A stretch of 43,031 nucleotides of DNA from an uncultured Opitutia bacterium (GTDB lineage: Bacteria > Verrucomicrobiota > Verrucomicrobiia > Opitutales > UBA953), in NCBI GenBank assembly GCA_903924185.1, contig CAIYAN010000038.1, positions 1 through 43,031 of the forward strand, given 5' to 3'. Both the position numbers and the translations under genes were made by a program. How positions within the stretch are numbered: the stretch's first letter is position 1; the number at the start of each line of letters is the position of its first letter. Shown one piece after another: positions 20,317-40,087 of the stretch. The notes under the pieces were generated by a model that saw nothing but the letters and a program-made list of their open reading frames with translations, ran no database searches and was not told where the DNA came from.

Positions 20317-23300
20317 ATGACTTCTGGAAAAAAGTGCCCAAGTTCGCTCGGTAAGACGCTACGACTCTTGCTTGCCGCAGCGGCCATGCCGGTCGGAGCG
20401 TATGCGCAGACCACGATCACCTTTCAGCAAGGCACGGCTGGTTACCTCGGTGGCGTCGACCGGAACCTAACTGCGACTACCGCCGCCGCCAACGTTGCCC
20501 TTGGCGAAGTTGCCATGAATAACGGCACGACGGTCGCAGAGTCCCAGTATTTCCTAAAGTTTAGTAGCCTGTTTGGCACGGGGGCCGCCTTTATTCCGAC
20601 GAACGCGACGATTTTGAGCGCGACGTTGACCCTGAAGGTTGGGGCGACGACGGGCGACACTGCGGCGGCGACTTCTGCTGGAATCACCGTGGCCCCGATG
20701 CTGGCGGATTTTACCAATGCCACTTCCTTGGTCTCCTTTAGTGGGGTCAGCGCTGTCGGGACCACCTTATTGACGAACGGTCCGCTCTATGTGAACGGTT
20801 TGACCAAGTTACCCACGGCAATCACCAGTCCAGCGGTACTCAATACGTCGTATTCAGCGAACGTTACCCAAGCCGTCCAAGCTTGGTCTTCTGGTGCCTA
20901 CACGAATAATGGCTTCGTCGTCCAGTCCCAGGTCGCCGATCTCCTGCGTGTCAACGGCGATGCGGCCACGACGGTCGCCAATCGCCCGATTCTGTCGGTG
21001 ACTTACGTCACGAATGGCACGACTACTTCGTTCAAGAATGGCGTTAATGGGTATGTTGGCTTCACTGGCATCACGACCCAGCACCCTTCCGACGGTACCT
21101 TGGCTACGACGCAGATCACTGCGACATCGACTAAGGTCACCTTAGATGGGGCCACCGGAAATTCGTTACCGGGTAATGTCGCCAGTCCGGATTGGCTAGG
21201 TTTACTCAAGGTCGGGAATATCTTTGGTTCCGCTAAGTCGCAGGTTCCCACGCGTGCCACCATCTCGAAGGCTTGGGTAATCGTGAACACCGGAACCAGT
21301 TCCAATGATCAGTCGGGTGGACCTTATAACATGTATCGGATGATTACCGCCTGGGATACGACGTCGACCTATGACTCCTTGAGCACTGTGGGCGGCCCTT
21401 ACCTTGGGCCGATTTCGGGCACCGACTACCTGGCGGCTGGGGTGACGTCCTCGCCCAGTTCCTTGCCGCAGGGTGCCAACAGCCTCTTCGATATCACGGC
21501 GGACATCACGGCTTGGAAGAATGGGACGGCTAATAATGGTTGGCTATTCCGCACGCGCACCTCGACCGACGGTTGGGCGTTTAACGGCCCCGGTGCGACC
21601 GACGTCAATAAACGTCCGGAACTTCAGGTGAATTACGTCGTTGATCAGCTGCGTTGGAAAGGCGACGTCTCGGCCGTATGGGACGCGGGGACCGCCGTCG
21701 GTACGGGTGGCACGAACAATTGGATGTTAGAAACAGCGGGGACGGCCACGAACTTTATTCCGACGGACCGCGTGCTCTTCGATGATACCGCTGCCGGGAC
21801 TGGTGCGGTGACCATTAGTGTGGCGGCCGATTTGCAGCCGCAACGTGTGACCTTTAATAATGCGACCCGTGATTATTTACTCACGGGTCCGGGTGCGCTC
21901 ACCGGTGGTGGTGAGTTTTGGAAAACCGGCGGAGGGACCACTGTCATTACGACGAATGTTCTGCTCACGGGGGGCGCGCGCATTTTTGCTGGAACTTTGC
22001 AAGTCGGCACCGGCGGCACGGACGGCAATTTGGCTGGTCCGATTATCGTCGATGCAGGGGCGATGTTAATCGTCAACCGTAGCGATAATATCACGAACAC
22101 CGAATCCATCACGGGGGCTGGTAATGCCACGAAACTTGGCGCGGGGCGTTTTGATGCAGGCGCAGCTTTCAATTTGACCGGAAACTTAACGATCAACGGT
22201 GGTACCTTGGCGGTTGGTGCCGGTGCCCGTCCATCCTCCGTTTCCGTGGGTGCGGGTGCGACGTTTGCGGTGACGAGTGGCCTCACGACCACGACGATGC
22301 TCTTGCCGACCCTGACACTGGCTACTGCGGGTGCCACCCTGCAGTTCGAGTTGGCTACGCTGAGCAATCCGACGGTACCGTTACTGTCTGTGACGGGGAC
22401 CGATGGTTTGGTCTTATCGGGCGGGGCGCATCAGTTGAACATCGTATCCACGGGTTCACTCGGTCTGGGGACGTTTACCCTAGTAAACTACGTTGGGGCC
22501 GACATCGCCGCGGGGTTCACCTTGAATACGTTGCCGCAGCGCCTCATCGGTAACCTCGTCTACAATACTGCCGCTAAGTCGATTGACCTAAGCATCACTG
22601 ACCAAAACCAGATTCTTTGGAGTGGCGTGGTCGATGGCACTTGGGATGCCGGCACGGGCGTGAATTTAGGTGGTACCATGAATTGGATCGAGAAAGCCAA
22701 TACCGCTGGGTCGGCCGCGACCAATTTCTTCGCGGGCGACAAGGTTGCTTTCGATGACACCGCTGTCGTACGCGTCATCAACCTCGTGGGCGAAATTGGC
22801 CCGAGCGGGGTAAGTGTAAATAGCCAGTATGATTTCACCTTCGGCGGTACGGGTACTTTGGCTCCCACCGGTGCTTTGACCAAAGCAGGTACGGGCCGGC
22901 TTACGCTCCTAGCCAGCAAGACTTCCGCCGGTTTTACCTCCATTAACAATGGAGTCCTTCAACTGGGCGATGCTACGAACACTCCCACCTTATCGGGTAC
23001 GGTCACCATTGCCGCTGGCGCTAACCTGAACGTCGTCAACGGTACTTTGGCGGCGGTCACGACGGTTGCGACGGGTGGCAGTCTGCGCGTGGACGGCGGC
23101 ACTGTCACCGGTGCTCTCAATCTTTCAGGTAATGCCGACTTCTTTGGCGGCAACCTATCCGGCGTGGCGACGCTCGCAGCGGGTGGCCTCCTGAAGGTAA
23201 AGTCGACCTTCGCGGGCTCGTTAACCGGTAACATCATTGTCCCCACGGATGCGACGTTGCAGTTTGAGCAAGCAGCAGCCATTCGCTTCGACAAGGTCGT

Positions 23301-26300
23301 TTCGGGGACGGGTGTGCTTAACTTTAACGGCCCTGGTCGCACTACTTTCGGTGGTAGTAGCAACGGCTTCACTGGCACGGTCAACGTGAATGCGGGCGAG
23401 TTTCGCATCGACGATCCTGGGACGGGTGGTGACTTAGGTGTTACTAATATCATCGTCAATAATGGTGGCCGTTTTCAGTTCGGCGATACCTCCATCGGTA
23501 ATCCGGATTTACCGGGGACTACTTACATTACCATCAACACGGGCGGCGTCATTGCCTTTCAAGAGGCCGAAGACTTTGGCGGCATCCATCTCAATGGGGG
23601 CACGGTCCTGCTCGAGCAGAGCGGCTTCAATCTCACCGGTACCACCGCGATCATGGTCTGGAACTCTGGGACCATCAAAACCTTGGATGGTGGTACGTCC
23701 CCATACAACATCGCAGGCACTGCCGGATCCCCAGTTCTGAAGCTCACGAGCGGTGTGGTTGAGGTGAGTGGCTTAGCGGCCCTGAACTTACCCAGCGGTA
23801 TGCAGGTTGCCGAAGGCACCTTGAGACTGGTTTCCGCAGCTAATCTCGGCAGCGGTGCCATGCCGATTGCCTTGGGTAGCGACGCCACCGCGGTCACGCC
23901 CACCGTGGGCACGTTGGAATACACTGGTTTGACCGCCACCCGTTCCGGGGCTTTCATCGTGAATCAAGGGGGTGGGGTTATCTCGGTCACCACCTCTGGC
24001 GCAACGTTGACCTTATCTGGGACGCTTTCCGGGGCAGGTGATCTGAAGAAGCTGGGTGCTGGCAATCTGTCGATGGGGGATTCTTCATCCTACACCGGTT
24101 TAATCACGGTGACGGAAGGCGGTTGGACCTTGGGGGCCAACGTAGTGGGGCAGTCGCTGTCAACCATCCGCCTTGACGGTGGTAGCCTTCTCTTCGCAGG
24201 CTCGGTCAGCGGAGCGAGCCAGTTTAACCTGGGTGAACTGCAACTGGCGCCGACGGCCACACAACGCGATATCGTTTTAGTGGATACGGCTGCCTTGCCT
24301 TTGCCGGCTATCTTAAACCTGGGTGGCAAGAACGTTGACATGGTCTTTGATGGCACGTTCTCCGGGGCCGGCACGTTGGTGAAGGTCGGGACTGGTTTGC
24401 TTAAGCTCACGCAGGCGAACCCTTTGAGCGGGACGACCAAATTATCGAACGGCACGCTGACTTTAGCCCATCGCGACGCCCTTCGCTCCAGTACCTTAGA
24501 TTTGGCTGGTGGAACGCTAGTCTTCGATGCCGCCGTGACCTCCAAGGTTTTTGCTCTAGGTGGCCTGACGACTTCACTGATTACACCAGCCAATCTCGCC
24601 TTGGTGAATTCGGTGGGGGACGCGGTGACCTTGGAAATCGGCCGAGGCGACGCGAGTTCGCTCTTTACGGGGGTCGTGAGTGGACAGGGTGGCCTCACTA
24701 AGATTGGTAACGGCACTTTGACGCTGAGCGGCGCCAATACCTTTACGGGTGAGTTGAAGGTACAGGCCGGTACCGTCGCGCTCGCCGGTGTCAGTCTGCT
24801 GTCGGGCGGCGTCACCATCGATGGCGGCGTGCTGCAGGTTTCCACCGCACTGGCACTGGAAAACGTGGTGACGCTGAATGTGCCAAATAGTGGTGGAATC
24901 GCTTGGGGTGCCGGCGTTAGCGCGGATATCTCCGCTAAGTTGCCGACGCTTTTAGCTGGCACGACCTTTACGTTCGATACGAGCGGCAATAATGTGGCCT
25001 TCGCTCTTCCGTTGGCGGGCGCTGCGACCGTGCGCAAGGTAGGGGCAGGGCAATTGCTCGTCCCAGCTGCCCCAAGCTTCACGGGTAAGTGGGTGCTCTC
25101 AGGGGGAGAGTTAGGCATGGCCACGGACGCTGCTTTCGGTGCCGTTCCTACTAATATCGTCGCCGATCAGGTGGTCCTGGATGGCGGTGCTATTCAGGCT
25201 ACCTCCAGTTTTACGCTCAATGCCAAGCGTGGCTTACTCGTACGGACTGGTTCGACGGGCTACCTCAATCCGGTTGCTGGTGCCACCTTGCGCGTGGAGT
25301 CTGTGATCTCCAGCGAATCCTCCGTCGCTACGCTCGTGATCGGTGGGCCCAATGCCTTCTTTACCGGCAGCGGTACGGTCGTGCTTGCGGGGGCGAATAC
25401 CTTTGCGGGTTCCTGGTTGATTCAAGACAGCACGTTGCAGGTAGCCTCGATGGGAGACGGAACCAACCCGTCCGCCTTGGGGCTCGTGCCCATGACGCCC
25501 GCTGGCCTCAAGTTCTCGGGTGGCACCTTGCTCTATAGCGGCGCAGGTGAGTCGACGGCCCGTGGCTTCACCGTGGCTGGCAGCGGGGCCCGCTTTAGCT
25601 CGGAAGGGAATGGAGCTTTGGTGATCACTTCCTCGGCGTTGGTGGATTTCAGTAATGACTTCAGCCCGAACCGCCGTTTGACCCTGGCTGGTTCTAACTT
25701 GGGCGGAAATATATTCGCCGCCGAGATGTTCGAGTCGGATTCCTCACAGTTTGTATTCTCCGGACTAATCAAGGAAGGCGTCGGCCAGTGGTTACTCTCC
25801 GGTCCGGCGGCACGCTTCGCGCCGACGGCTGAATTCAACCTTAATGCCGGCCAACTTACTTTCACGGCGGGTGCGTTGGGCGATAATACTTACACGGGTC
25901 CGGTGGTGGTTAGCGGAACATCGACACTGGCTTGGGCCTCTGGTAATAACGATGACCTGTCGGCGCGCCTGCGCATTACTGACGGGTCGACGGCGACGTT
26001 TGATATCGCTTCGGGCGGCTTAGTCCGCCTCGGCAGTTCGTTGACGTTTGGTGCCGCGGCTGACGGTCGTATGGTCAAGCAAGGCTCAGGTGCGTTAGTC
26101 TTCGCCGCCGCCAACGCCTTTAGCGGAGGCCTGACGGTGGAGCAGGGAATTGTTAGGGTGACTGCCGCCAGCGGCCTAGGCTCCGGTGCAGTCACGGTCA
26201 ACGGAGGCACCTTGAGCGTGGAAGCGAATCTCAGCAATGCAGTCCAAGTCACGGGTGGCACTTTGACCGGCGGCGGCGCCCTAGGTGTAGTCACCATGGG

Positions 26301-26811
26301 CCAAGGTGCAATTCTCAGCCCCGGTGTGTCTGTCGGTACGCTGACTATTAGTTCCTTGATTTTACTCAATGGATCTTCGCTAAAATGGGAATTGGCTGAC
26401 GCGGCCGGTGCCATGGGGACGGGCTACGATAGCCTAGCCGTGACGGGTCAGCTCGACTTGATCAGTGCCAGCCCAGCCACCCGGATCGTGCTGAAGGCGG
26501 TCTCGGTCGGCAATACTGGCGCCCCACTCAACTTCCAACGTAACCTACCTAACAGTTTCGTCTTCGCCAACTTTGGGTCGCTGGCCTTGGGGTCGAATCA
26601 GAACGTCGCTGATCTGTTCAGTTTGGATTTCAGTGAGTTCCGCTACACCGACGGCACACTGGCCAATGCTGCGGATTGGCAGGTGACGGCTGACGCGTCA
26701 GCACTTACCTTGAGCAACATCCCTGAGCCTTCGACGTATGGCCTCGGCCTGGGTGCCCTCGCCCTCGCGCTGGTCGCTCTTCGCCGCCGTAAGCAAGCTA
26801 AGGCTATTTGA
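20317..26811 (+). CDS. Giant PEP-CTERM-anchored surface protein: two tandem N-terminal jelly-roll-like (DNRLRE-like) modules plus many autotransporter-associated beta-strand repeats
   Basis: 2164 aa with a signal peptide. Duplicated modules end in NNGFVVQS...NRPILSVTYV and NNGWLFRT...NKRPELQVNYV. Repeats of the form G.G.L.L.G.N.FTG...V..GTL recur many times. The C-terminus IPEPSTYGLGLGALALALVALRRRKQ is a PEP-CTERM sorting signal. Confidence 0.88.
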   Translation: MTSGKKCPSSLGKTLRLLLAAAAMPVGAYAQTTITFQQGTAGYLGGVDRNLTATTAAANVALGEVAMNNGTTVAESQYFLKFSSLFGTGAAFIPTNATILSATLTLKVGATTGDTAAATSAGITVAPMLADFTNATSLVSFSGVSAVGTTLLTNGPLYVNGLTKLPTAITSPAVLNTSYSANVTQAVQAWSSGAYTNNGFVVQSQVADLLRVNGDAATTVANRPILSVTYVTNGTTTSFKNGVNGYVGFTGITTQHPSDGTLATTQITATSTKVTLDGATGNSLPGNVASPDWLGLLKVGNIFGSAKSQVPTRATISKAWVIVNTGTSSNDQSGGPYNMYRMITAWDTTSTYDSLSTVGGPYLGPISGTDYLAAGVTSSPSSLPQGANSLFDITADITAWKNGTANNGWLFRTRTSTDGWAFNGPGATDVNKRPELQVNYVVDQLRWKGDVSAVWDAGTAVGTGGTNNWMLETAGTATNFIPTDRVLFDDTAAGTGAVTISVAADLQPQRVTFNNATRDYLLTGPGALTGGGEFWKTGGGTTVITTNVLLTGGARIFAGTLQVGTGGTDGNLAGPIIVDAGAMLIVNRSDNITNTESITGAGNATKLGAGRFDAGAAFNLTGNLTINGGTLAVGAGARPSSVSVGAGATFAVTSGLTTTTMLLPTLTLATAGATLQFELATLSNPTVPLLSVTGTDGLVLSGGAHQLNIVSTGSLGLGTFTLVNYVGADIAAGFTLNTLPQRLIGNLVYNTAAKSIDLSITDQNQILWSGVVDGTWDAGTGVNLGGTMNWIEKANTAGSAATNFFAGDKVAFDDTAVVRVINLVGEIGPSGVSVNSQYDFTFGGTGTLAPTGALTKAGTGRLTLLASKTSAGFTSINNGVLQLGDATNTPTLSGTVTIAAGANLNVVNGTLAAVTTVATGGSLRVDGGTVTGALNLSGNADFFGGNLSGVATLAAGGLLKVKSTFAGSLTGNIIVPTDATLQFEQAAAIRFDKVVSGTGVLNFNGPGRTTFGGSSNGFTGTVNVNAGEFRIDDPGTGGDLGVTNIIVNNGGRFQFGDTSIGNPDLPGTTYITINTGGVIAFQEAEDFGGIHLNGGTVLLEQSGFNLTGTTAIMVWNSGTIKTLDGGTSPYNIAGTAGSPVLKLTSGVVEVSGLAALNLPSGMQVAEGTLRLVSAANLGSGAMPIALGSDATAVTPTVGTLEYTGLTATRSGAFIVNQGGGVISVTTSGATLTLSGTLSGAGDLKKLGAGNLSMGDSSSYTGLITVTEGGWTLGANVVGQSLSTIRLDGGSLLFAGSVSGASQFNLGELQLAPTATQRDIVLVDTAALPLPAILNLGGKNVDMVFDGTFSGAGTLVKVGTGLLKLTQANPLSGTTKLSNGTLTLAHRDALRSSTLDLAGGTLVFDAAVTSKVFALGGLTTSLITPANLALVNSVGDAVTLEIGRGDASSLFTGVVSGQGGLTKIGNGTLTLSGANTFTGELKVQAGTVALAGVSLLSGGVTIDGGVLQVSTALALENVVTLNVPNSGGIAWGAGVSADISAKLPTLLAGTTFTFDTSGNNVAFALPLAGAATVRKVGAGQLLVPAAPSFTGKWVLSGGELGMATDAAFGAVPTNIVADQVVLDGGAIQATSSFTLNAKRGLLVRTGSTGYLNPVAGATLRVESVISSESSVATLVIGGPNAFFTGSGTVVLAGANTFAGSWLIQDSTLQVASMGDGTNPSALGLVPMTPAGLKFSGGTLLYSGAGESTARGFTVAGSGARFSSEGNGALVITSSALVDFSNDFSPNRRLTLAGSNLGGNIFAAEMFESDSSQFVFSGLIKEGVGQWLLSGPAARFAPTAEFNLNAGQLTFTAGALGDNTYTGPVVVSGTSTLAWASGNNDDLSARLRITDGSTATFDIASGGLVRLGSSLTFGAAADGRMVKQGSGALVFAAANAFSGGLTVEQGIVRVTAASGLGSGAVTVNGGTLSVEANLSNAVQVTGGTLTGGGALGVVTMGQGAILSPGVSVGTLTISSLILLNGSSLKWELADAAGAMGTGYDSLAVTGQLDLISASPATRIVLKAVSVGNTGAPLNFQRNLPNSFVFANFGSLALGSNQNVADLFSLDFSEFRYTDGTLANAADWQVTADASALTLSNIPEPSTYGLGLGALALALVALRRRKQAKAI

Positions 26812-29416
26812 AGGTCAGGAGCTTAGATGATTTCCAGATTTCGCCCTTAGGACCGACGAGCATGACGGCGAGGCCTTCGCGTTCGGCGAGGGCTTGCGCG
26901 TCTTTCCAGCCTGAGGCCATGAGCGCAGTCGACCAGCCGTCCGCTTGGAAGCAGCTGGGGTGGTAGACGCAACAGAGCTCGATGGTCGGTTCGACGGGTT
27001 GTCCAGTCTTTGGCGAGAGGATGTGGGAGATGGATTTACCCGCAGCAGCGCGCTTGGCGCGGTAAAGACCGGAGGGGCTCAGGGCCATGTCTTTGAGCAC
27101 GGGTTTGGCGATCATTGCCCGCGTATTAAAGGGGTCTTCAATGCCGACCTGCCAACTGCCAGCGGCCAAGAGTTCACCCCCGACTTCGATGAGAAATTCC
27201 TTTTGCCCAGCTTGGCGTAATACTTGGGCCACGCGATCAGCGGCGTAGCCTTGCAGCACCGAACCCAGGTCTAACTGCACGCGCGGGTGGCTCTTGCGCA
27301 GGCTCCCGTTGGTCACGTCCAAGGTGAGCTTATCCGAGCCGACAAAGGTCAAGGTCACGCGGAGTTTCTCGGCGGTAGGAACGGGTAGGTTACTTCCGGC
27401 TGGTCCGTAACCCCACAGGCTGGTTAGGGGGGCGATGGTGACGTCGTAGTTTCGCTCGGAGGCCGTCCAGAGTTTCTGGGTGAAGGCGAGTATCTCCGTC
27501 AGCTCGGCGTCGATGGCCATCGGCTGCGTCGACTCGAGTTCGTTGAAGCGGATGGCCTGCGAGCCTTTGCGCCAGTGCGAGAGCGAGAACTCCACGCGAT
27601 TAATCTCCGCTTCGATATCTTTGTGTAGGGTCGTTCGGTCGGCGATGGGGCCACGCACCTTGACCGTCCACGTCGTCCCGAAAGCTCCACCGTGCATTTC
27701 GGCGACCGGGGCCGTCGACTCACTCTGCGCCGTGATGAGGTTAAGGTTCTCCCGGGGCCGTCCGAGCGTGAGCAGGGCACCGACGAGTAGGAGCAGCACG
27801 GCGAAGGTGTCGCGTTTCGCCCAAGTCTCGTGCTGGCTTTGCGTGCGGGTGAAGTTCAGCAGTGCGCCCGTCGGGCAACCGTACTTGCAAAAGCCTTGGG
27901 GGATGAAGACAGCGACGACGAGTCCGAGGCCGGCGAGGATGAGCGAGCTCAGCGCGACGCCACTGAGCACCCAGGCATCAAAGGGCTCTATCTGCCCGAG
28001 ACTCCAACGCGGCCAGACCAAGGCCGCGAGGAAAGCGCCCCCGAGTAGGATGAACGGGATGACGCGTAGCCACTGGTGAGTCCTCGCCGAGAGGCGGATA
28101 TGTAGTTTCGGGAATCGCCCGAGGAGTTCTTGGGCGGCGCCATGCGGGCAGATTTGGTGGCAATAGGCTTGGCGGCGAGTCGACCAAGGGACGAGCAGGG
28201 CAATCGCGCCTAGGGCCACCAGACCCGTGGTCGGCCCTCCCGGCAGGCCGTAGCGGGCCCAGCCGACGAAGAGGGAGAGCGAGACCATCTGGCCGAGCCA
28301 AAGCCCCAGGCCGGCCACCAGGAGTAGCTGCCAGGCTGTCCGTACCCACGGCTTCCCGTGCAGGCTGGTAAAGGTCATCAACAGGGCACCGACTAAGAAG
28401 CACCAGATGGCTGCTTGTTGGATCAGGCCCCAGGTGCCCCTACGCTTAGCGAGCTCGCCCTTGGCGTCATCCGTGAAGCGCTGCTTGATACCTTCGGCAA
28501 TGGCATAACTCGTCAAGGTCGCCCCTGCCACGCCTTCTAGTTGCGCACTGGTAAAGTCTATCTTCGGCCATTCCTTGGTAGTCCACTTAGTGAGCGACTG
28601 CAGGTACTCACGGTCGTCATAGATCCGCTGAACGTAGTGGGTCGTGTCGTAGGTCTCGCGCAGGACAATCTTGCGAAGCGTCAACTGGTCGACGTCGACG
28701 GCGATGAGCGTCTCCGAGGGACCAGCGTAACCATTAATTTCGTCGGACGACGGCGAAGAGCGCACGGCGTAGCCGAGGGCTTTGCCTTGAGCGTCGCGCA
28801 CCAGGTTCCAGCCGAGGCGTGGGACGTTGCGCTCGAAACCCACGGCGGCAGGGAAGCCCAACTTCTTAACTTCGTCGAGCGAGAGCGGGGTCGGGAAGCG
28901 CAACGAGGCGTAGGTACCGGCGGTGCGTTGCTGGATGGATTGGACGACGGACAGGGCAGTGAGCGTGGAGCCGGCATAGCCTTCGAGCTTTGGGGACGGC
29001 TCTGAGGTCGGGCGCCAATCACGGAAAGACTTCGCGAACTTCGGGTTGTCGCGGAGCTGGTCGACGTGCCCCGGCGTATCCTCCGACGACAGGATGCGCG
29101 TGCCGACGACGCGGTCATGGTTATCGAGCGCGACGAGAATATTACTGGGTCCTTGGTAACCGACGACCTTCTCGGCCTCCGGTTGCGTCGTGAGCAGGAG
29201 GCCGATCTTGTTCTGATACTTATCACGGACAATGAGGGTGGACTGTGGGCCCGGCTTGAGGGCCACCGCTTCGGGGAAGAACGCCTGCGCATCCGCCAGC
29301 GTGAGGTGTGCGAGGGCGGAGTCTGGAGACGGCGTGGTCAGCTGCAGCAGCCACACGGCGATGCCCAGCGCCGCGAGGCGCCAGAGCCGCACCGCCCAGC
29401 CTTGCAGTCGCCCCAT
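26804..29416 (-). CDS. Fusion protein: 2x FMN-binding domain + NapH/NosR-like polytopic CxxxCP membrane domain + C-terminal ApbE FAD:protein FMN transferase
   Basis: 870 aa with an N-terminal anchor. Two FMN_bind-like domains end in YAGSTLTA (T151) and VAGATLTS (T300); compare NqrC SGATLTS. About six helices carry C419HQIC423P and C510KYGC514P. The ApbE-like C-terminus has FGTTW, DVTIAPL..LWG, LDLGSVLQGYAADR, FLIEVGGE, HILSPKTGQP and DGWSTAL. Confidence 0.8.
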   Translation of the reverse strand: MGRLQGWAVRLWRLAALGIAVWLLQLTTPSPDSALAHLTLADAQAFFPEAVALKPGPQSTLIVRDKYQNKIGLLLTTQPEAEKVVGYQGPSNILVALDNHDRVVGTRILSSEDTPGHVDQLRDNPKFAKSFRDWRPTSEPSPKLEGYAGSTLTALSVVQSIQQRTAGTYASLRFPTPLSLDEVKKLGFPAAVGFERNVPRLGWNLVRDAQGKALGYAVRSSPSSDEINGYAGPSETLIAVDVDQLTLRKIVLRETYDTTHYVQRIYDDREYLQSLTKWTTKEWPKIDFTSAQLEGVAGATLTSYAIAEGIKQRFTDDAKGELAKRRGTWGLIQQAAIWCFLVGALLMTFTSLHGKPWVRTAWQLLLVAGLGLWLGQMVSLSLFVGWARYGLPGGPTTGLVALGAIALLVPWSTRRQAYCHQICPHGAAQELLGRFPKLHIRLSARTHQWLRVIPFILLGGAFLAALVWPRWSLGQIEPFDAWVLSGVALSSLILAGLGLVVAVFIPQGFCKYGCPTGALLNFTRTQSQHETWAKRDTFAVLLLLVGALLTLGRPRENLNLITAQSESTAPVAEMHGGAFGTTWTVKVRGPIADRTTLHKDIEAEINRVEFSLSHWRKGSQAIRFNELESTQPMAIDAELTEILAFTQKLWTASERNYDVTIAPLTSLWGYGPAGSNLPVPTAEKLRVTLTFVGSDKLTLDVTNGSLRKSHPRVQLDLGSVLQGYAADRVAQVLRQAGQKEFLIEVGGELLAAGSWQVGIEDPFNTRAMIAKPVLKDMALSPSGLYRAKRAAAGKSISHILSPKTGQPVEPTIELCCVYHPSCFQADGWSTALMASGWKDAQALAEREGLAVMLVGPKGEIWKSSKLLTFK

Positions 29417-29419
29417 GCC

Positions 29420-31831
29420 TTATTTGGCGGGCACTAGCTGCACCGCGTCGGCGTGGATGTTACCGTTAGCGTTCTTTCCGCCGATCGTGAGCGTGTGGGC
29501 GCCCGACGCGAATTCGTAGGTGCCGAGGAGTTGGAAGCCGCCTTCGGGGTTGGACTTCTGGTTCGCCGTGAGCGTCACGACCTGCTTACCCGTCGGGTTC
29601 AGGGTAATGGTCGTATTGCTCGCGCGATTTTCGTGCCCGGCCCAGTAAAGACGAACTTCATAGCGGCCCGCCTGCGGAATCTTGAAGGTATAAGCGGCCT
29701 CGTTATCGCCCTTGGGAGCGTAGTGGTAGCCGGCACCGAGGTGCGGGATGCCGTGGCCAGCGCTCCATTTCCCCGTGAGCTTAGCTTGCGAGTCGTCGAC
29801 GACGATGCCCGGGAGCTTGGCGAGTTCCGCCATTTCATCGACGGAGAGTTTGTTCGGTGCGCCCGCGGCCTTGCCGAGGTCGGCGTTCATGCGACCAACG
29901 GGGAGCTGCTTGAAGTCGGCGATGGAGGTGTCGAGCGAGAGTTCACCGTCTAGCGACGTGCGGCGCATGCGGCCCGGCTGTTCCATGAGCTTGATCAGCG
30001 CCGGGAGGTGCTCCTGGTAAACGCCGCGCGGATTGGTCTTCTCGCGGACCGCGAGGTAGGCGGCCTTACCGACGACTTCGCCCATCATGCCAATGGTGCG
30101 CATGACGCGAACGGTGCCAAGGGCCTCGTGCGTGACGGAGATGTGGCGGCCCGCCATGAAGAGGTTATCGATGTTCTTCGAGTAGAAGAGGCGGTAAGGG
30201 AGTGGATAGCCGTTGCGACGGTCAACGGCAGTGACGTGCTTACCGCTCGCATCGACGTAGCCGAAGGCGGCACGGGAGATGAACGGGTTGTCCGGGAACT
30301 TCTTAGCATACTGCTCACGGGCGTAGTGGAGGTCGATGTCCCAGGTGGTCGGTACGCAACCATCGACGAAGTCCTTGCGGGCCACGATGTCTTCCTTGTT
30401 TAGGATGATGTCGCCAGTCAGGAGGCGGGATTCACGCGGGCCGCCGACGTGCGAGGCCCACTTGAGGTCAGCCAAGGCGTACTTGTCTTTTTGCTCGCCG
30501 TTTTTGAGCGCGGAGAAGGCGCCATATAACGCGCGGAGGTTCCAGTCACGGATGGTTTCGAGGTCCTTGATGGGGTCCTTGTCGAAGCCGGATTCCCAGA
30601 ACCACTCGGCTTTCATGAAGGGCTTGTCGTCGAGCTTCGAACTAGATTTCTGCAGCAGCGGGAAGTCACCGAGGGCTAAGGGCAGGGCCCACGGCGTGGC
30701 GGGCCAAGCGATGGGCGTAGCGGCGTCCTGGTAGAACCACATGTTCGACATCCCCATACGCTTGTTGGGTTCGGTGCGGTATTCGGCGCCCGCATAGGCA
30801 CCGACCCAGCCGTGGCCGGTGGTGTCGGCGACAAACTTCGCACGGAAGAGACGCTCGCGGCCGGTCTTAACGTCGATGGCCTTGACGGCGGCGATGCGGT
30901 TGCCGTCCATAACGACGCCGGTAGCGAAGTGACCGAGGAAGAGGCTGATATTCTTTTCAGCGCGGACGACCTTCTCCTTCAGCTCGTCCCCGAAGCTATC
31001 GACGCGACCAGGGCTGTCGGGCGAGCGGTCCGCGATTTCTTCGATGATCTCGCCGAGGTGCGGGTATTTGCCACGCGTGGTGCCGCCCATCGCCCAGACG
31101 CCGATTTCGGAACTGCCGTTACCGCCGAGGACAAAGCGGTCTTGGATGAAGGCGACCTTGAGCGACTGACGGGCGCCCGAGAGCGCGGCGCCGAGGCCAC
31201 CGTAGCCACCGCCGACGACGACGAGGTCATACTCACCCACGTCTTCGGGGCCGTTCGGATTGTTGAAGGAGTTACGGTAGGCGGCGAGGCCCTGGGCGGT
31301 GTCGGGCGGGACGCCCTTGTCCTTGGTCAGGACGATGGCATCGCAACGGCCATCGAACCCGGTGAGGTCATGGAGCGCGATTTTGGCTTCGCCTGCGGCG
31401 AGCGTGACCTTACCGCCTTCCTGCCAATGCCACTCCGCGCCTTTGGCACCGAACTCGGTGGCCAGGGGTTGGCCGTTGACGATGAGTTGGAAGCGGCCGG
31501 GGGAGCCAGGGGCGTTCCAGTGGCCAACCCAATCCTTGGTGCGGACCCAGACGTAGTATTCGCCCGTGCTCGGAATCTTTGCGGTGCCTTGGGCGTCAGC
31601 GACGGGCTTACCGAGGCCGTGAGCCAGCAGGTAGGGCGAGCCGACGATGTTAGTGAAGGCGGTGTCCAGCTTCCAGCCGCCATGGGAGGTGAGCGACTCG
31701 GCTTCAATGAAGACGGTCTGGGCGGAGGCAGCGGCGGAGGCGACGCAGGCGAGTCCGAGGAGGCGGAGGGCGCGGGGGAGCATGTTGGTAGGAAAAGGAG
31801 AAGGCGGGCGGCTTCCAATAGTATTATCCAT
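29420..31831 (-). CDS. Exported FAD-dependent oxidoreductase with N- and C-terminal carbohydrate-binding-like beta-sandwich domains
   Basis: 803 aa with dinucleotide motif VVVGGGYGGLGAALSGA. The Sec-type signal peptide is MLPRALRLLGLACVASAAASAQ if the start is ATG 31783; the longest ORF starts at 31831. The stop lies 3 nt before the start of the downstream gene. Confidence 0.78.
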   Translation of the reverse strand: MDNTIGSRPPSPFPTNMLPRALRLLGLACVASAAASAQTVFIEAESLTSHGGWKLDTAFTNIVGSPYLLAHGLGKPVADAQGTAKIPSTGEYYVWVRTKDWVGHWNAPGSPGRFQLIVNGQPLATEFGAKGAEWHWQEGGKVTLAAGEAKIALHDLTGFDGRCDAIVLTKDKGVPPDTAQGLAAYRNSFNNPNGPEDVGEYDLVVVGGGYGGLGAALSGARQSLKVAFIQDRFVLGGNGSSEIGVWAMGGTTRGKYPHLGEIIEEIADRSPDSPGRVDSFGDELKEKVVRAEKNISLFLGHFATGVVMDGNRIAAVKAIDVKTGRERLFRAKFVADTTGHGWVGAYAGAEYRTEPNKRMGMSNMWFYQDAATPIAWPATPWALPLALGDFPLLQKSSSKLDDKPFMKAEWFWESGFDKDPIKDLETIRDWNLRALYGAFSALKNGEQKDKYALADLKWASHVGGPRESRLLTGDIILNKEDIVARKDFVDGCVPTTWDIDLHYAREQYAKKFPDNPFISRAAFGYVDASGKHVTAVDRRNGYPLPYRLFYSKNIDNLFMAGRHISVTHEALGTVRVMRTIGMMGEVVGKAAYLAVREKTNPRGVYQEHLPALIKLMEQPGRMRRTSLDGELSLDTSIADFKQLPVGRMNADLGKAAGAPNKLSVDEMAELAKLPGIVVDDSQAKLTGKWSAGHGIPHLGAGYHYAPKGDNEAAYTFKIPQAGRYEVRLYWAGHENRASNTTITLNPTGKQVVTLTANQKSNPEGGFQLLGTYEFASGAHTLTIGGKNANGNIHADAVQLVPAK

Positions 31832-31896: not shown

Positions 31897-32700
31897 ATGC
31901 TTCGCCCCGTCTTGCTCCTCGCCTCCGCTGTTTTGGCCGTCGCCGCCGACCTGCCCCGTGAGAAATTACTCGTGGACCTCGATGCCCGGGTGGGCCTCAC
32001 GGTGGATGCGCAAGGCCGTGTGACCAAATGGGTCAACCAAGCCGGCCCCGCCGAGGTGCGTGATTTTGTGGGGCAGGACCAAGGTCGCAAGGTTCCTGGC
32101 TCTGGTCTGCCGACTGCCCCGAAGGATGCCACGGAGGGTGTGGGCTTTGCAGCTCAGGAACTCGTCTGCCACGAGGAGAAAGCGCTTGATGGCGTGGTGA
32201 GCGGCGATGGCTGCACGTGGATCGCGGTGCTGCGTCCCGCCGTCCAAGCGAAGGGTGGCCTCAAGGACGTGAATTCCTTTTTTGGTAATCTCCGTAACGG
32301 TAGTAAATATGAAGGCCTGTGGGGCTGTCTCGATGACGACAACACGGTCTGGTGGGGCGCCCGCAATGGGCTGACCTTCGGCCGGTTCGACGTGAACAAT
32401 CCCAAGGTCGCTGGCCCCAAACTCACCGCCGGTAAATGGGTGGTCGTGGCGGGCCGTCTGGGCGCCGGCACGGGAGAGGTCAGCGCTGAACTTTTTGTCG
32501 ATCAGCCGAAGGCCGTGGCGACAGCTAAGTTCCCCGTGAACCCTAAGGCCGACGCTTCGAAACTTTGCATTGGGCAGGAACGCGACGCGATTAATCACCC
32601 GGGCTTCGAGTCCTTTGATGGGTCCATCCGCCGCTTCCTGCTGTGGAATCGGCCGCTCACGGACGAGGAACTCCAGCAGGCCCTAACGGCCGTTAAGTAG
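31897..32700 (+). CDS. LamG/concanavalin-A-like jelly-roll domain protein, secreted
   Basis: 267 aa with a signal peptide. The ending (GQERD...FDGSIRRFLLWNRPLTDEEL) is typical of LamG-like domains. Confidence 0.65.
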   Translation: MLRPVLLLASAVLAVAADLPREKLLVDLDARVGLTVDAQGRVTKWVNQAGPAEVRDFVGQDQGRKVPGSGLPTAPKDATEGVGFAAQELVCHEEKALDGVVSGDGCTWIAVLRPAVQAKGGLKDVNSFFGNLRNGSKYEGLWGCLDDDNTVWWGARNGLTFGRFDVNNPKVAGPKLTAGKWVVVAGRLGAGTGEVSAELFVDQPKAVATAKFPVNPKADASKLCIGQERDAINHPGFESFDGSIRRFLLWNRPLTDEELQQALTAVK

Positions 32701-33214
32701 TCTTCTTCTTCGCAGCATCTTCCGCGGCGGGCGCCTTTTCGGCGGCCTTCTTCTTCTTGGAGTTGTCCATCACCTTGGTGCGCTGGGTGTCCATGGCGTC
32801 CATCACTTTCTCGAGCGACATCATCTTGATGCTGGGGTCGTTCGTGCTAATCGCAGTCATGAGGGTGCTGCGGACCTCGTCCACGGCGCGGCGGGCGTCG
32901 GCAACGATATCCTTCTTCTCGGCACCGGTCGCAAATTCCAGACGGCTACGGGTTTCCACCATGCGTTCGCGAGCGGCCTTCACGGATTCATCCTGGTAGG
33001 CTTTCAGCGCGGCGACCTTAATCTTCGCGAGCTCCTCCTTGGAGACTCCGTCGACTTCATCGGGTACGACAGCCTGACGTTGGGCACCGCCCGCGGCGGC
33101 GGCGCGCTTCGCGGCTTTCGTCGCCGGCTCCGTTGGAGTCGTGGCGGTGGGCTTGGCAGCGTCGGCGGCGAAAGCGAGGCTGGCGGCGAAGAGGAGGAAG
33201 AGGAGGGGTTTCAT
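32693..33214 (-). CDS. Secreted Ala/Lys/Glu-rich helical protein, paralog family member 1 (one module)
   Basis: 173 aa with a signal peptide. The module is VPDEVDGVSKEELAKIK...AARERM...DPSIKMMSLEKVMDAMDTQ. It is a paralog of the two genes upstream. Confidence 0.7.
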   Translation of the reverse strand: MKPLLFLLFAASLAFAADAAKPTATTPTEPATKAAKRAAAAGGAQRQAVVPDEVDGVSKEELAKIKVAALKAYQDESVKAARERMVETRSRLEFATGAEKKDIVADARRAVDEVRSTLMTAISTNDPSIKMMSLEKVMDAMDTQRTKVMDNSKKKKAAEKAPAAEDAAKKKTT

Positions 33215-33220
33215 TGAAGA

Positions 33221-33260
33221 TAGGGGTTAGGGGATAGGGGGTAGGGGATGGGGGATCGGG
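33221..33260 (+). repeat. Five tandem TAGGGGN heptamers; G-quadruplex-capable on the + strand and C-rich in the reverse-strand transcript
   Basis: TAGGGGT TAGGGGA TAGGGGG TAGGGGA TGGGGGA TCGGG fills the whole 50-nt gap between two paralogous genes. Confidence 0.9.
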
Positions 33261-33264
33261 AGTC

Positions 33265-34122
33265 TTATTTACCGCGGCCGTTACGCATGCCCTGTTCCAT
33301 GGCTTCGCTGATCTTGGCGATGGTTTCAGCGGAGAGTGAAGGGTCGATCTTGGCGACGGCGGCACGCATCGCGGCACGCATGGTGGTGGCGGCTTTTTCG
33401 AAGTCAGGTTGCATGTCGGCGCGCTCGCTGCCGGTGAGGAACTGCGTCTTCGCGGTCAGCTCCTGCAGCTTGGTACGCGCGGCTTTCCAGTCGGCGTCTT
33501 GGTAGGCGCGGCCCAGGGCGGCTTTAAACTTGGCGGTATCTTCGGGGCTGATGCCGTCGATCTGTGGGACCTGTACGGCACCGCGGACGGCCGGCGTTGC
33601 CGGCAGGGTCTTCTTGTCGGCCTGCGGGTCGCGTACCGCCGGCTTGGCGTCCGTGCTGCCGGGGAAGGCTTTGCCGTTACCGGTTACCGCCTTCTTGTTG
33701 GCGTCTTGCGCACGGCTGCGTTGCTGCTTCTCAAAGGCATCGCTGACCTTGCTGATGGTCTCCTTGGAGAGGGAAGGGTCCGCCTTAGCTATGGCCGAAC
33801 GGGTGAGTTGGACGAGTTTGTCGACGATGGCTTCGAGTTCACTGCGCATGGACTTCTTTTCGTCATCGCTGGCGAATTCAGCCTGCTTGCGGATTTCTTG
33901 GATCTTTTCGCGCGCGGCCTGGATTTCTGGGTCGGCGGCGATCTTGGCGGCGGCACGGCGGAACTTCAGGAGGTCTTCTCGGGAGACCCCTTCGACTTCC
34001 GGCATGCCGGGCACGCTGGCGGAGGTGGCGGGCTTGGCCGTCGACGGCGTCGTCGGGGCTGGGGCATCCGCGGCGGTCAGCGCGGTGGCGGCGAGGAAAA
34101 AGGCAAGTAAAGGGCGGGGCAT
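33265..34122 (-). CDS. Secreted helical protein, paralog family member 2 (two modules)
   Basis: 285 aa with a signal peptide. Two copies of the module are present: MPEVEGVSREDLLKFR...DPSLSKETISKVSDAFEKQ and VPQIDGISPEDTAKFK...DPSLSAETIAKISEAMEQG. Confidence 0.75.
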   Translation of the reverse strand: MPRPLLAFFLAATALTAADAPAPTTPSTAKPATSASVPGMPEVEGVSREDLLKFRRAAAKIAADPEIQAAREKIQEIRKQAEFASDDEKKSMRSELEAIVDKLVQLTRSAIAKADPSLSKETISKVSDAFEKQQRSRAQDANKKAVTGNGKAFPGSTDAKPAVRDPQADKKTLPATPAVRGAVQVPQIDGISPEDTAKFKAALGRAYQDADWKAARTKLQELTAKTQFLTGSERADMQPDFEKAATTMRAAMRAAVAKIDPSLSAETIAKISEAMEQGMRNGRGK

Positions 34123-34181
34123 GGGCTTAGTCTTTATACACCGAAAGTGGCGGGAAGTTCAATTATTCGGGAGATGGACGC

Positions 34182-34210
34182 AAAAAAAAGACCCCGGCGA
34201 ACCGGGGTCT
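34182..34210 (-). terminator. Intrinsic terminator downstream of the 34235..34738 gene
   Basis: On the reverse strand: AGACCCCGG-TTCG-CCGGGGTC followed by TTTTTTTT. Confidence 0.8.
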
Positions 34211-34234
34211 GATTGGAGCCGGGTAATCCGAAGA

Positions 34235-34738
34235 TTACTTGGCGGCCGGAGCGTCGGCAGGCTTTTCGCCCTTACCTTCGCCCTTGCCCTTACCTTCGCC
34301 ACCCTTGCCGCCCTTGCCGCCTTGGCGGTTCTTCATGGCTTCGTCGGCTTTCTTGATGACTTCAGCGAGGGAAGCGTCAGCCTTAAGGATCGCGGCGTTA
34401 GTGGCTTCGCGGACGGCGAGCATGGCCTTCTGGACGTCGGCACGAGCGGCTTCCTTGTCTTCAGCCTTGGCAGCCTTTTCGCGGGCAGCGGTGGCAGCTT
34501 CGTTAGCCTTCTTCACTTCAGGGGATTCCTGGGCGGCCTTGCGGGCTTCCTGGTATTTCTTCATGTCCTCGGCGGAGACGCCGGGGATCGCGAAGTTACC
34601 ACCCTGGGGGCGGCCTTCGCCTTTCTTGGCTTCGCCCTTCGGGGCATCAGGCTTCTTAGCGTCGCCGGCAGGGGCGTCGGCGGCCACGAGGCCAGCGGCG
34701 GCGATGAGGGCGAGGAGGAGGGGGAATTTGAGTTTCAT
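34235..34738 (-). CDS. Secreted helical protein, paralog family member 3 (one divergent module plus a GKG-repeat tail)
   Basis: 167 aa with a signal peptide. The module is IPGVSAEDMKKYQEARKAA...ADASLAEVIKKADEAMKNRQ, followed by the tail GGKGGKGGEGKGKGEGKGEK. Confidence 0.7.
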   Translation of the reverse strand: MKLKFPLLLALIAAAGLVAADAPAGDAKKPDAPKGEAKKGEGRPQGGNFAIPGVSAEDMKKYQEARKAAQESPEVKKANEAATAAREKAAKAEDKEAARADVQKAMLAVREATNAAILKADASLAEVIKKADEAMKNRQGGKGGKGGEGKGKGEGKGEKPADAPAAK

Positions 34739-36799: not shown

Positions 36800-36921
36800 G
36801 GGAGGAAGGTTACCTTAATAAACTCCGCAGGGAAGGGGGAAGTTCCAGCGTTTTCTGCGTTTGGGCCTCGGTGGACGGGCTTCCCCCTCGACTTTTAAGT
36901 GGTTTTGAGAGGCAATGCGGC

Positions 36922-37872
36922 ATGTCTAGTTCCACCGCTCCCACCGCGCTCCGCGTCATCGACTCCCATACGGGGGGCGAGCCGACCCGGGTGGTGGTTT
37001 CGGGCGGACCGGACCTGGGTGCCGGGCCGCTGTCCGAGCGTCTGCAGGTGTTTCGTCGCGACCATGACCGGTTCCGTTCGGCGGTGGTGAGTGAGCCGCG
37101 GGGTTCGGATGTCGTCGTGGGCGCCTTGTTGGTCCCACCGCACGATCCATCGTGTCGCTTCGGGGTAATTTTCTTTAATAATGTCGGGACGCTCTGGATG
37201 TGCGGGCACGGGACCATCGGGTTGGTGGTGACGCTCGCGCATCAGGGTCTCATCCAGCCGGGTGAGGTCCGCATCGATACCGCGGTTGGTCCGGTCACCG
37301 CGACGCTGCACGCCGATGGTTCCGTGACCATCGCGAACGTCCCGTCTTACCGTCACGCCAAGGCCGTCGCGGTCGACGTGCCAGGCCTCGGAATCGTCCG
37401 CGGCGATATCGCTTGGGGCGGTAACTGGTTCTTCCTTATCGAGTCGCATGGGTTGGAGGTTTCCTTGGCGAACATCGAAGCGCTGACTGATTACGCGTGG
37501 AAGGTTCGCCAAGCTTTGACTCAGACCGGTGTGACGGGCGCCGATGGTGGGGAGATCGACCATATCGAGCTCTTTGCGGCCACACCCACGGCCGATAGCC
37601 GGAACTTCGTGCTTTGTCCTGGTAAGGCGTACGACCGCTCGCCCTGTGGCACGGGCACGAGTGCTAAACTCGCCTGTCTCGCGGCCGACGGTAAACTCGC
37701 GCCTGGCGCCCTCTGGCGGCAGGAGAGCGTTATCGGCAGCGCCTTTGTCGGTTCGTATGAAATTCTCACCGACGGTAAGATTTGTCCGTCCATCACCGGC
37801 ACTGCGTACGTGCAGTCCGAGGCAGTCTTCCATTTCCATCCGCAAGACCCTTTTGCTTGGGGTATCCGCTAA
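36922..37872 (+). CDS. 4-hydroxyproline 2-epimerase (proline racemase family, Cys/Cys type)
   Basis: Motifs [22 protein letters not shown] and SPCGTGTSA; both catalytic Cys are present. The start is placed at ATG 36922. Confidence 0.85.
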
Positions 37873-37877
37873 ACAAC

Positions 37878-39131: not shown

Positions 39132-39156
39132 ACTTTCACCTCCTATTATCCATACC

Positions 39157-40086: not shown

Positions 40087-40087
40087 G

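Follow-up and report, generated by a model that had tools for sequence, protein, structure and literature searches.

A conserved gene pair of PVC bacteria encodes an exported FAD-dependent oxidoreductase and a putative self-flavinylating membrane electron carrier

Background

NapH-like proteins with N-terminal flavin mononucleotide (FMN) domains form an established class of extracytosolic electron-transfer modules, whose oxidoreductase partners vary (PMC8238504). In their survey, Méheust et al. (2021) described 2,465 NapH-like clusters, most of them with an N-terminal FMN domain, named NosZ, PceA, NirS and ExaA as partners in such systems, and reported most partners, as well as the reactions of the majority of the clusters, as unknown. 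Here we describe two adjacent genes, A and B, in a 43,031-nt stretch of DNA from an uncultured Opitutia bacterium (contig CAIYAN010000038.1; hereafter the window, GC content about 61%). Gene A encodes an exported flavin adenine dinucleotide (FAD)-dependent oxidoreductase, and gene B encodes a membrane protein that combines two FMN_bind domains, a core like that of RdhC, NosR and NapH, and an ApbE flavin transferase domain. We consider it probable that A exchanges electrons with the membrane pool through B, in whichever direction they flow. Our preferred reading, to which we assign a probability of about 0.4, is that the two genes make up a periplasmic redox module complete in itself, in which A would be a dehydrogenase whose electrons pass from its FAD through the two FMNs and the core of B to menaquinone.

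The pair corresponds to the operational definition of Méheust et al., i.e. a PF12801 (or K19339) membrane protein clustered with an FMN_bind or ApbE gene; here both domains lie in one polypeptide with PF12801. It shares with the NapH-like systems a multi-helix PF12801 protein, an N-terminal FMN_bind domain predicted to be extracytosolic, an ApbE in the cluster and a modular oxidoreductase partner, but differs from them in that B fuses ApbE to its putative substrate and doubles the FMN domain, and in that the partner is a PF12831 enzyme with modules resembling carbohydrate-binding modules (CBMs) (PMC8238504). Neither a PF12831 partner nor a bacterial membrane carrier with fused ApbE is mentioned in the main text of that paper and the supplements covered here, in the 2024 follow-up or in the 2025 review on ApbE. 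An initial annotation of the window had taken the fusion and its pairing for an unrecognised design; the pair belongs instead to the NapH-like flavinylation-associated systems (PMC8238504), with a core of the RdhC/NosR kind (PMC5928378). The fused ApbE, the doubled FMN domain and the PF12831 partner set the pair apart within this framework, the general principle of which is established, and the advance would therefore be incremental unless the substrate is unusual.

Results

Conservation of the gene pair

Genes A and B are two minus-strand open reading frames (ORFs) of 803 and 870 aa, and the ATG of B lies only 3 nt beyond the stop of A; their coordinates, given in Table 1, are exactly those of the initial annotation. 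Sequence searches returned hundreds of full-length homologues of B. A pattern scan for B over 185,579 species genomes yielded 511 loci, of which the best 80 were analysed; 76 of these were informative, that is, carried upstream DNA. Since ORF clustering merges A, B and antisense ORFs in these GC-rich loci, the occurrence of A was counted by tblastn with A. The best 80 loci all come from the Planctomycetota-Verrucomicrobiota-Chlamydiota (PVC) group, namely Opitutae, Chthoniobacteraceae/Spartobacteria, Roseibacillus, Pirellulales, Planctomycetaceae and the cultured Anatilimnocola sp. NA78, and those matching the window best are metagenome-assembled genomes (MAGs) of freshwater Opitutae/Verrucomicrobiota, with a protein identity of 88-95%. 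Several MAG records (L020, L074 and L065) are titled 'uncultured Klebsiella sp.' or 'Bifidobacteriaceae', yet the locus is clearly verrucomicrobial; these titles are probably cases of mislabelled taxonomy in public records.

In 68 of the 76 informative loci (67 plus one split match), the gene immediately preceding B on the same strand is A, with gaps of 4-129 nt. In 3 of the 76, A occurs elsewhere in the same locus: unrelated genes lie between A and B in two Chthoniobacteraceae loci, and the order is inverted in one (L080). For the other 5 loci, mostly from Chthoniobacteraceae/Spartobacteria, A was not found in the flank at hand. The initial annotation had let the pairing stand or fall with co-conservation in related genomes, and these counts across the PVC group uphold it. 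The identity of A exceeds that of B in 66 of 67 pairs (medians 75% versus 59%), and ranges from 49 to 80% across the two phyla. Apart from the pair itself, the neighbours are not conserved beyond Opitutae and differ completely between lineages, so that the pair alone is conserved; the Anatilimnocola pair, for instance, sits among proteases, a transposase and GcvT. A 61%-identical homologue of A (L086) is likewise followed by a fused B.

Table 1 Features of genes A and B in the window
Feature	Positions	Strand	Basis
Gene A, FAD-dependent oxidoreductase ORF, 803 aa	29420..31831	-	ORF list, Pfam
A signal peptide MLPRALRLLGLACVASAAASA, Sec-type, cleaved before QTVF	31721..31783	-	sequence, 20 orthologues
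A N-terminal beta-sandwich, residues 39-175, CBM6/35-like	31307..31717	-	AlphaFold, weak profile matches
A FAD_oxidored (PF12831) catalytic domain, GGGYGG Rossmann motif	30008..31228	-	Pfam E 7e-54
A C-terminal Golvesin_C/CBM84-like module	29432..29803	-	Pfam E 1.4e-21, PDB 6f2p, Foldseek
Gene B, signal anchor, two FMN_bind, RdhC/NosR/NapH-like core and ApbE, 870 aa	26804..29416	-	ORF, Pfam, AlphaFold
B N-terminal signal-anchor helix, residues 8-27, preceded by Arg-rich N-terminus	29336..29395	-	sequence, AlphaFold helix 2-27
B FMN_bind 1, predicted acceptor T151 (codon 28964-28966) in EGYAGST	28928..29161	-	Pfam 29.4 bits
B FMN_bind 2, predicted acceptor T300 (codon 28517-28519) in EGVAGAT	28481..28732	-	Pfam 26.1 bits
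B six-helix membrane core, residues 328-555, two Fer4_5 matches	27752..28435	-	Pfam Fer4_5 E 3.6e-12
B first CxxxCP, CHQICP, residues 419-424, K/R-rich loop after helix 4, predicted cytoplasmic	28145..28162	-	
B second CxxxCP, CKYGCP, residues 510-515, end of helix 6, predicted cytoplasmic	27872..27889	-	
B ApbE domain, predicted periplasmic after helix 7	26861..27682	-	Pfam E 5e-63, PDB, Foldseek

Domains and acceptor motifs of protein B

All the domains assigned to B by the initial annotation were recovered in profile searches: FMN_bind twice (Pfam cutoff 22 bits, each copy scanned separately), Fer4_5 (PF12801) twice, at 39-46 bits against a cutoff of 22, and ApbE, all within the same polypeptide. 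The ApbE match spans residues 579-852 and profile positions 1-265 of 266, with a score of 213.5 bits against a cutoff of 25.6 (E 5e-63). This region matched the ApbE structures 3pnd, 2o18 and 6nxi in the PDB with E values of 1e-41 to 1e-46, aligned end to end with the Salmonella and E. coli ApbE, in which the motifs DLGSVLQGYAAD, SHILSPKTG and ADGWSTAL have their counterparts, and its model was placed by Foldseek on the V. cholerae ApbE (6nxi) with a TM score of 0.87. As judged from these alignments, B carries a full-length ApbE domain with the predicted FAD- and Mg-binding and catalytic motifs. With 183.9 against 498 the match stays short of the NCBIfam equivalog cutoff, and the assignment is therefore made at the level of the ApbE family. 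Otherwise NCBIfam gave weak matches of B to NosR, NapH and RnfG, all far under the curated cutoffs, and Foldseek with B returned ApbE and weak NqrC matches alone, with no solved core of the NapH/NosR type.

The two acceptor motifs, AGSTLTA (T151) and AGATLTS (T300), are present in B. The ApbE recognition motif is D-x-x-[S/T]-G-A-[S/T] (PMC12052999), of which E-G-Y-A-G-S-T151 and E-G-V-A-G-A-T300 are conservative variants; the planctomycete orthologues of B carry the canonical D-A-V-S-G-[SA]-T. Conservation was read in 76 full-length genomic homologues from two phyla, Verrucomicrobiota and Planctomycetota, and T151, T300, the four Cys of CHQICP and CKYGCP and the ApbE motifs were conserved in all 76. 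These four are the only Cys in the membrane region of B. T151 and T300 are predicted to be the covalent-FMN acceptors.

Membrane topology of protein B

Hydropathy analysis gave six core helices at approximately residues 328-350, 364-385, 391-409, 448-471, 479-512 and 533-555; the N-terminal anchor (about 8-27) is visible as a hydrophobic stretch that stays under the threshold of the scan. The AlphaFold model of B contains seven helices, at 2-27, 300-349, 356-389, 397-412, 444-467, 481-504 and 534-551. Since an even number of helices, six, lies between the FMN domains and ApbE, these are located on the same side whatever the absolute orientation, and the Cys motifs, which follow helices 4 and 6, are on the opposite side. 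There are 10 Lys/Arg residues in the putative inside loops versus 1 in the outside loops, and the N-terminus is rich in Arg. In PceC, experiments placed the homologous FMN domain on the exoplasmic side and showed covalent flavin on the equivalent Thr (PMC5928378). On the grounds of the positive-inside charges, the homology with PceC and the export of the partner A, the FMN domains and ApbE of B are predicted to be periplasmic and the Cys motifs cytoplasmic. The 1 + 6 helix arrangement counted in the initial annotation, which is a prediction, agrees with hydropathy, the positive-inside rule and the AlphaFold helices.

Fused and unfused forms of protein B

An exhaustive search with B over 1.84 billion cluster representatives returned about 30 representatives that are full-length B fusions. 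More than 100 of the best 150 representatives are about 545-600 aa long and match residues 3-550 of B only. This unfused form, which is common in Planctomycetota, consists of the two FMN domains and the membrane core without ApbE; both motif pairs are retained in it, as is helix 7 at the C-terminus. The start of the unfused B overlaps the stop of A in Symmachiella dynata (CP036276.1), Allorhodopirellula heiligendammensis and a Tara Oceans MAG; the A orthologues of these three loci are 49-50% identical to A of the window, and no ApbE gene was found within the loci. As the same pairing occurs without ApbE, the conserved unit consists of A and the double-FMN membrane protein, and the ApbE fusion is a lineage variant; the full fusion stressed in the initial annotation is thus not what is conserved. 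In some lineages, ApbE was added behind helix 7. The genomic coupling of A and B is tight, because it survives inversion of gene order, loss of the ApbE domain and complete turnover of the neighbours.

Protein A, an exported FAD enzyme

The true start of A is probably M17 at position 31783, giving a protein of 787 aa, because many orthologues are 787 aa long and begin with MLPRALRLL. In the alignment of 20 orthologues, a short Sec-type leader without twin arginine was present in all 20, in accordance with the Sec rather than twin-arginine signal claimed initially; A does not belong to the substrates of twin-arginine translocation (Tat). The mature protein begins with the conserved T-x-F-[VI]-E-A-E. 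A lipoprotein signal was considered and rejected, there being no lipobox and no conserved Cys.

Residues 202-608 of A were assigned to PF12831 (FAD_oxidored) with E 7e-54 and 184.1 bits against a cutoff of 27, and the N-terminal dinucleotide-binding motif VVVGGGYGGLGAA is present. Residues 677-800 form a Golvesin_C domain (E 1.4e-21, 77 bits against 31.6), which matched the C-terminus of the Paenibacillus xanthan lyase 6f2p with E 1.4e-10 by sequence and 9e-16 with a 20-sequence profile. Foldseek superimposed this C-terminal module on 6f2p with a root-mean-square deviation of 1.9 Å at 32% identity, and also matched CBM6 and CBM35 modules. The C-terminal module of 6f2p is CBM84, which binds xanthan (PMC10049358); the homologous module is attached in 6f2p to a PL8 lyase, and in A to the FAD enzyme. 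Matches in PDB sequence and profile searches with A were confined to the Rossmann N-terminus and the CBM84 module, and NCBIfam gave weak N-terminal Rossmann matches alone. The N-terminal sandwich is all-beta in the AlphaFold model, with a predicted local distance difference test (pLDDT) score mostly of 70-94, and is very highly conserved; its profile matches are subthreshold for Golvesin_C (18.6 bits against 31.6) and weak for CBM_35 (E 0.099). Thus, of the initial description of A as an 803-aa FAD-dependent oxidoreductase with CBM-like flanks, the catalytic domain and the C-terminal module are confirmed above the cutoff and the N-terminal module remains below it.

The AlphaFold model of A, computed from 20 orthologues, is of moderate quality (pLDDT 65.6) and has beta-sandwiches on both sides of the FAD domain. 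Foldseek matched the FAD domain to generic two-domain FAD enzymes with TM scores of 0.25-0.45, namely CndH halogenase, geranylgeranyl reductase, group A monooxygenases, FrdA and MnmG; fold matches of this model do not separate oxidase, reductase and monooxygenase. A motif search in A detected neither a CxxCH heme motif nor a conserved Cys, and nothing that fits the [S/T]-G-[A/S]-[S/T] flavinylation motif. A was consequently rejected as a flavinylation target of ApbE, and the suggestion that ApbE supplies flavin to A finds no support, as A lacks the motif and many genomes have no ApbE beside the pair. A is thus a simple Sec-exported FAD protein with CBM-like flanks. Enzymes that combine PF12831 with CBM-like modules are very abundant in the PVC group: in one search that scored 8,000 candidates, more than 7,500 matched at E <= 1e-10. 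The literature consulted on PF12831, FAD_oxidored and Golvesin contains no functional data for bacterial members, and a paper on xanthan in Thermogutta does not bear on this enzyme; the 'FAD_oxidored' of flavoproteome papers is an unrelated clan name.

Discussion

Comparison with RdhC, NosR and other flavin systems

RdhC/PceC (PMC5928378) resembles B in having two CX3CP motifs, which follow helices 4 and 6, and in lacking a C-terminal ferredoxin domain; its exoplasmic FMN domain after helix 1 and its covalent-FMN Thr have predicted counterparts in B. It differs in having six helices and one FMN domain and in being encoded beside rdhA, whereas in B the helices number seven, the FMN domain is doubled and ApbE is fused. 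No reductive dehalogenase gene (rdhA) was found beside B, the neighbours of which are the PF12831 enzyme, a LamG protein and a PATR/PEP-CTERM protein. NosR, which acts with NosX/ApbE, has a periplasmic flavinylated domain, a CX3CP core, maturation by ApbE and a periplasmic redox enzyme that it serves, all of which B shares by prediction; the cytoplasmic C-terminal domain of NosR with two [4Fe-4S] motifs is absent from B, whose C-terminus is ApbE. B scored 28.7 bits with the NosR profile NF046105, the cutoff of which is 1000, and no nos genes occur here; with the NapH profiles TIGR02163 and PRK09477 it scored 23.2 against 213 and 20.8 against 234, respectively. By these comparisons B lies outside the RdhC, NosR and NapH families, yet would work like them.

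Fusion of ApbE to its flavinylation target is known from a trypanosomatid fumarate reductase with an N-terminal ApbE, the sole fusion of this kind in the 2025 review (PMC12052999). That enzyme is eukaryotic, soluble and glycosomal or cytosolic, and the reductase itself is the target, whereas the target in B would be a membrane carrier on the periplasmic side. The Shewanella FccA and UrdA and the Listeria FrdA (PMC8238504) resemble A in being Sec-exported extracytosolic FAD enzymes that draw their flavin from the periplasm and reach the membrane pool through covalent-FMN or heme carriers. They are fumarate-reductase-like, belong to PF00890 and usually have the carrier, an FMN_bind or cytochrome domain, fused to the enzyme, while A belongs to PF12831 and has no carrier of its own.

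Proposed mechanism and alternative explanations

We propose that B would be inserted with a cytoplasmic N-terminus, its two FMN domains and the C-terminal ApbE facing the periplasm. The ApbE domain would use periplasmic FAD to attach FMN covalently to T151 and T300 of the same or a neighbouring B molecule; a periplasmic ApbE presupposes a periplasmic FAD pool. A would be exported unfolded via Sec, fold in the periplasm and bind FAD non-covalently there. On contact with A, the two covalent FMNs of B may carry electrons back and forth between the FAD of A and the core of B, which is of the RdhC/NosR/NapH type and may in turn exchange electrons with the (mena)quinone pool, the CxxxCP pair at the cytoplasmic face being involved in some way. 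Because A has neither heme, conserved Cys nor a flavinylation motif and the periplasm is without NAD(P)H, an external electron partner is needed, and B is the obvious candidate.

As to direction, we give a slight preference, of about 55:45, to a dehydrogenase role of A against the reverse flow. The host lineages include cultured Planctomycetes, to which an aerobic heterotrophic lifestyle is attributed, and the flow of electrons from a low-potential flavin to menaquinone is thermodynamically downhill; both count for the dehydrogenase. The CBM84 homology of the C-terminal module suggests the same direction; on this slightly preferred view the substrate would be a carbohydrate-like compound of the periplasm or envelope, to which the CBM-like flanking modules bind. 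The initial annotation had considered a periplasmic carbohydrate redox system. This overstates the evidence, which consists of the CBM-like folds; in the comparison of loci, no carbohydrate-active genes were consistently linked to the pair outside Opitutae.

That absence is one of several points that weigh against the dehydrogenase module. Some B homologues (L055, L060 and L082) have no A within the flank, and three A homologues of about 60% identity (L083, L087 and L088) have no adjacent B, being followed by a DUF7133 beta-propeller gene without heme motifs in two cases and by neither in one. The model of A is mediocre, with catalytic-domain loops at pLDDT below 50 and generic fold matches. 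No membrane-spanning cofactor is evident in B. No function has been assigned to the CxxxCP motifs even in NosR and RdhC, the iron of NosR is accounted for by ferredoxin-type clusters, which B lacks, and electron transfer across the membrane via CxxxCP is the standard hypothesis for the family, demonstrated for no member (PMC5928378). The literature holds no experiment on any member of the A or B orthologue groups. Finally, the studied relatives of the core, NapH, NosR and PceC, are thought to send electrons outward to reductases.

A reversed flow is accordingly a possibility, which we rate as somewhat doubtful: B would oxidise (mena)quinol and deliver electrons outward via the FMNs to the FAD of A, and A would be, with similar doubt, a periplasmic reductase, an O2-dependent hydroxylase- or halogenase-like enzyme, or a component of envelope repair resembling MsrPQ. 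NapH, NosR and PceC/RdhC have all been proposed as conduits from quinol to periplasmic reductases (PMC8238504, PMC5928378, PMC12052999), and A as a reductase would need a supply from B, there being no NAD(P)H in the periplasm for flavin reduction. The best folds for the FAD domain, i.e. the CndH halogenase, geranylgeranyl reductase and group A monooxygenases, require prior flavin reduction, but their low TM scores come from a model of low confidence. That the pair stands alone in varied contexts with an unusually conserved A looks like housekeeping or maintenance more than substrate-specific catabolism; the genomic context, on the other side, suggests no acceptor substrate, and the step from menaquinol to a low-potential flavin is uphill unless driven by the pull of an acceptor or by the membrane potential.

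It is also conceivable, but improbable, that B is mainly an activation or maintenance factor for A, as has been proposed of NosR for NosZ, or that its ApbE also loads FAD into A. NosR is needed for the activity and maturation of NosZ besides electron donation (PMC12052999, PMC5928378), a Sec-exported A must acquire its FAD in the periplasm, and ApbE binds FAD according to the title of PDB 3pnd. However, A is without the ApbE recognition motif, the doubled and invariant FMN acceptor sites of B point to electron transfer, and many Planctomycetes keep A and the FMN/core protein as a pair with no ApbE at the locus, so that ApbE is not a conserved partner. Still less probable, in our view, is conserved synteny without direct coupling, in which case the periplasmic partner of B would be a different protein and A would rely on O2 or a cytochrome. 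The existence of A homologues without adjacent B, and of B homologues without adjacent A, would fit this explanation, as would the three loci where a DUF7133 beta-propeller gene takes the place of B after A. Against it stand the adjacency in 68 of 76 loci from two phyla while all other neighbours change, the short gaps, 4-129 nt and in Planctomycetes a stop/start overlap, and the persistence of the pair through both the inversion of gene order in L080 and the loss of the ApbE domain.

Neighbouring genes

The gene converging on B (20317-26811, plus strand; 8-nt 3' overlap) has a 2164-aa product that carries PATR autotransporter-passenger repeats and, C-terminally, a PEP-CTERM sorting signal, and giant PATR/PEP-CTERM homologues lie downstream of B in about 23 Opitutae-type loci. 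Divergent from A, a secreted 267-aa Laminin_G_3 (concanavalin-like) protein is encoded at 31897-32700 (plus strand); this gene stands beside the pair in 28 loci, all of the Opitutae type, and in none of the planctomycete loci. It is followed at 32693-34738 (minus strand) by three tandem paralogues of 173, 285 and 167 aa, secreted Ala/Lys/Glu-rich helical proteins without a Pfam match that share a repeated unit of about 70 aa (…GVSxEDLxKxxxA…AAREK…); a cluster of antisense ORFs suggests that about 16 related loci have conserved these genes.

About 5 kb from the pair (36871-41680, plus strand) there is a set of the hydroxyproline-catabolism type, with Pro_racemase-like, DAO, DHDPS-like and aldehyde dehydrogenase genes, which also occurs at L001 1-2575. 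Pro_racemase and DHDPS genes lie directly beside A and B in Allorhodopirellula heiligendammensis (L090 2065-4118); the vicinity of such genes to the pair may be a coincidence. LamG, FGase, PATR/PEP-CTERM and hydroxyproline-type neighbours were rejected as parts of the system, since they are conserved within Opitutae-type loci only, with the exception of the Pro_racemase and DHDPS genes in this one planctomycete.

Genes for DUF7133 beta-propeller proteins were observed after A-like genes at L083/L084 8451-9911, L088 7401-8867 and L086 10196-12319. In the three loci where DUF7133 replaces B, the protein has 486-488 aa and no CxxCH; one locus has the A-B pair followed by a gene for a 1194-aa protein of DUF7133-HEAT-cytochrome c architecture. 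DUF7133 may be a second recurrent partner of the A enzyme family; a role as a cytochrome replacement for B was rejected, the 486-aa protein being without CxxCH.

Farther away, a 739-aa multicopper oxidase (Cu-oxidase_3/_2) is fused to a C-terminal AhpC/TSA-Redoxin domain (11526-13745, plus strand), an unusual combination that is also found in an 80%-identical relative (L001 21187-22616). On the minus strand, 3254-6441 contains a gene for a protein with a GH79 C-terminal domain beside a sulfatase gene with a C-terminal EF-hand pair, and 206-2881 encodes an 891-aa protein with a cytochrome c near its C-terminus. These GH79, sulfatase and cytochrome c genes are typical of the glycan-degrading and redox content of PVC genomes.

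Conclusions

Among the NapH-like systems, whose reactions are mostly unknown, the A-B pair is a compact and strongly co-conserved two-gene case. It occurs in about 500 species-level genomes, and some of its hosts are cultured Planctomycetes (Symmachiella dynata, Allorhodopirellula and Anatilimnocola), which are genome-sequenced and tractable. As the fused B brings along the enzyme for its own maturation, a membrane carrier with two covalent flavins should be easier to produce in a heterologous host. The system bears on the role of CX3CP in NapH, NosR and RdhC, and on that of PF12831 enzymes with CBM-like modules. A bolder version of our proposal, which we hold to be unlikely but worth stating, is that A is the catalytic subunit of an unrecognised PVC-wide system that oxidises or reduces periplasmic glycans or envelope carbohydrates and is linked to menaquinone by a self-flavinylating, heme-free, all-flavin wire. 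If this is true, the pair would be the flavin-based equivalent of flavoprotein-cytochrome c sugar dehydrogenases and would provide the first defined periplasmic function for PF12831.

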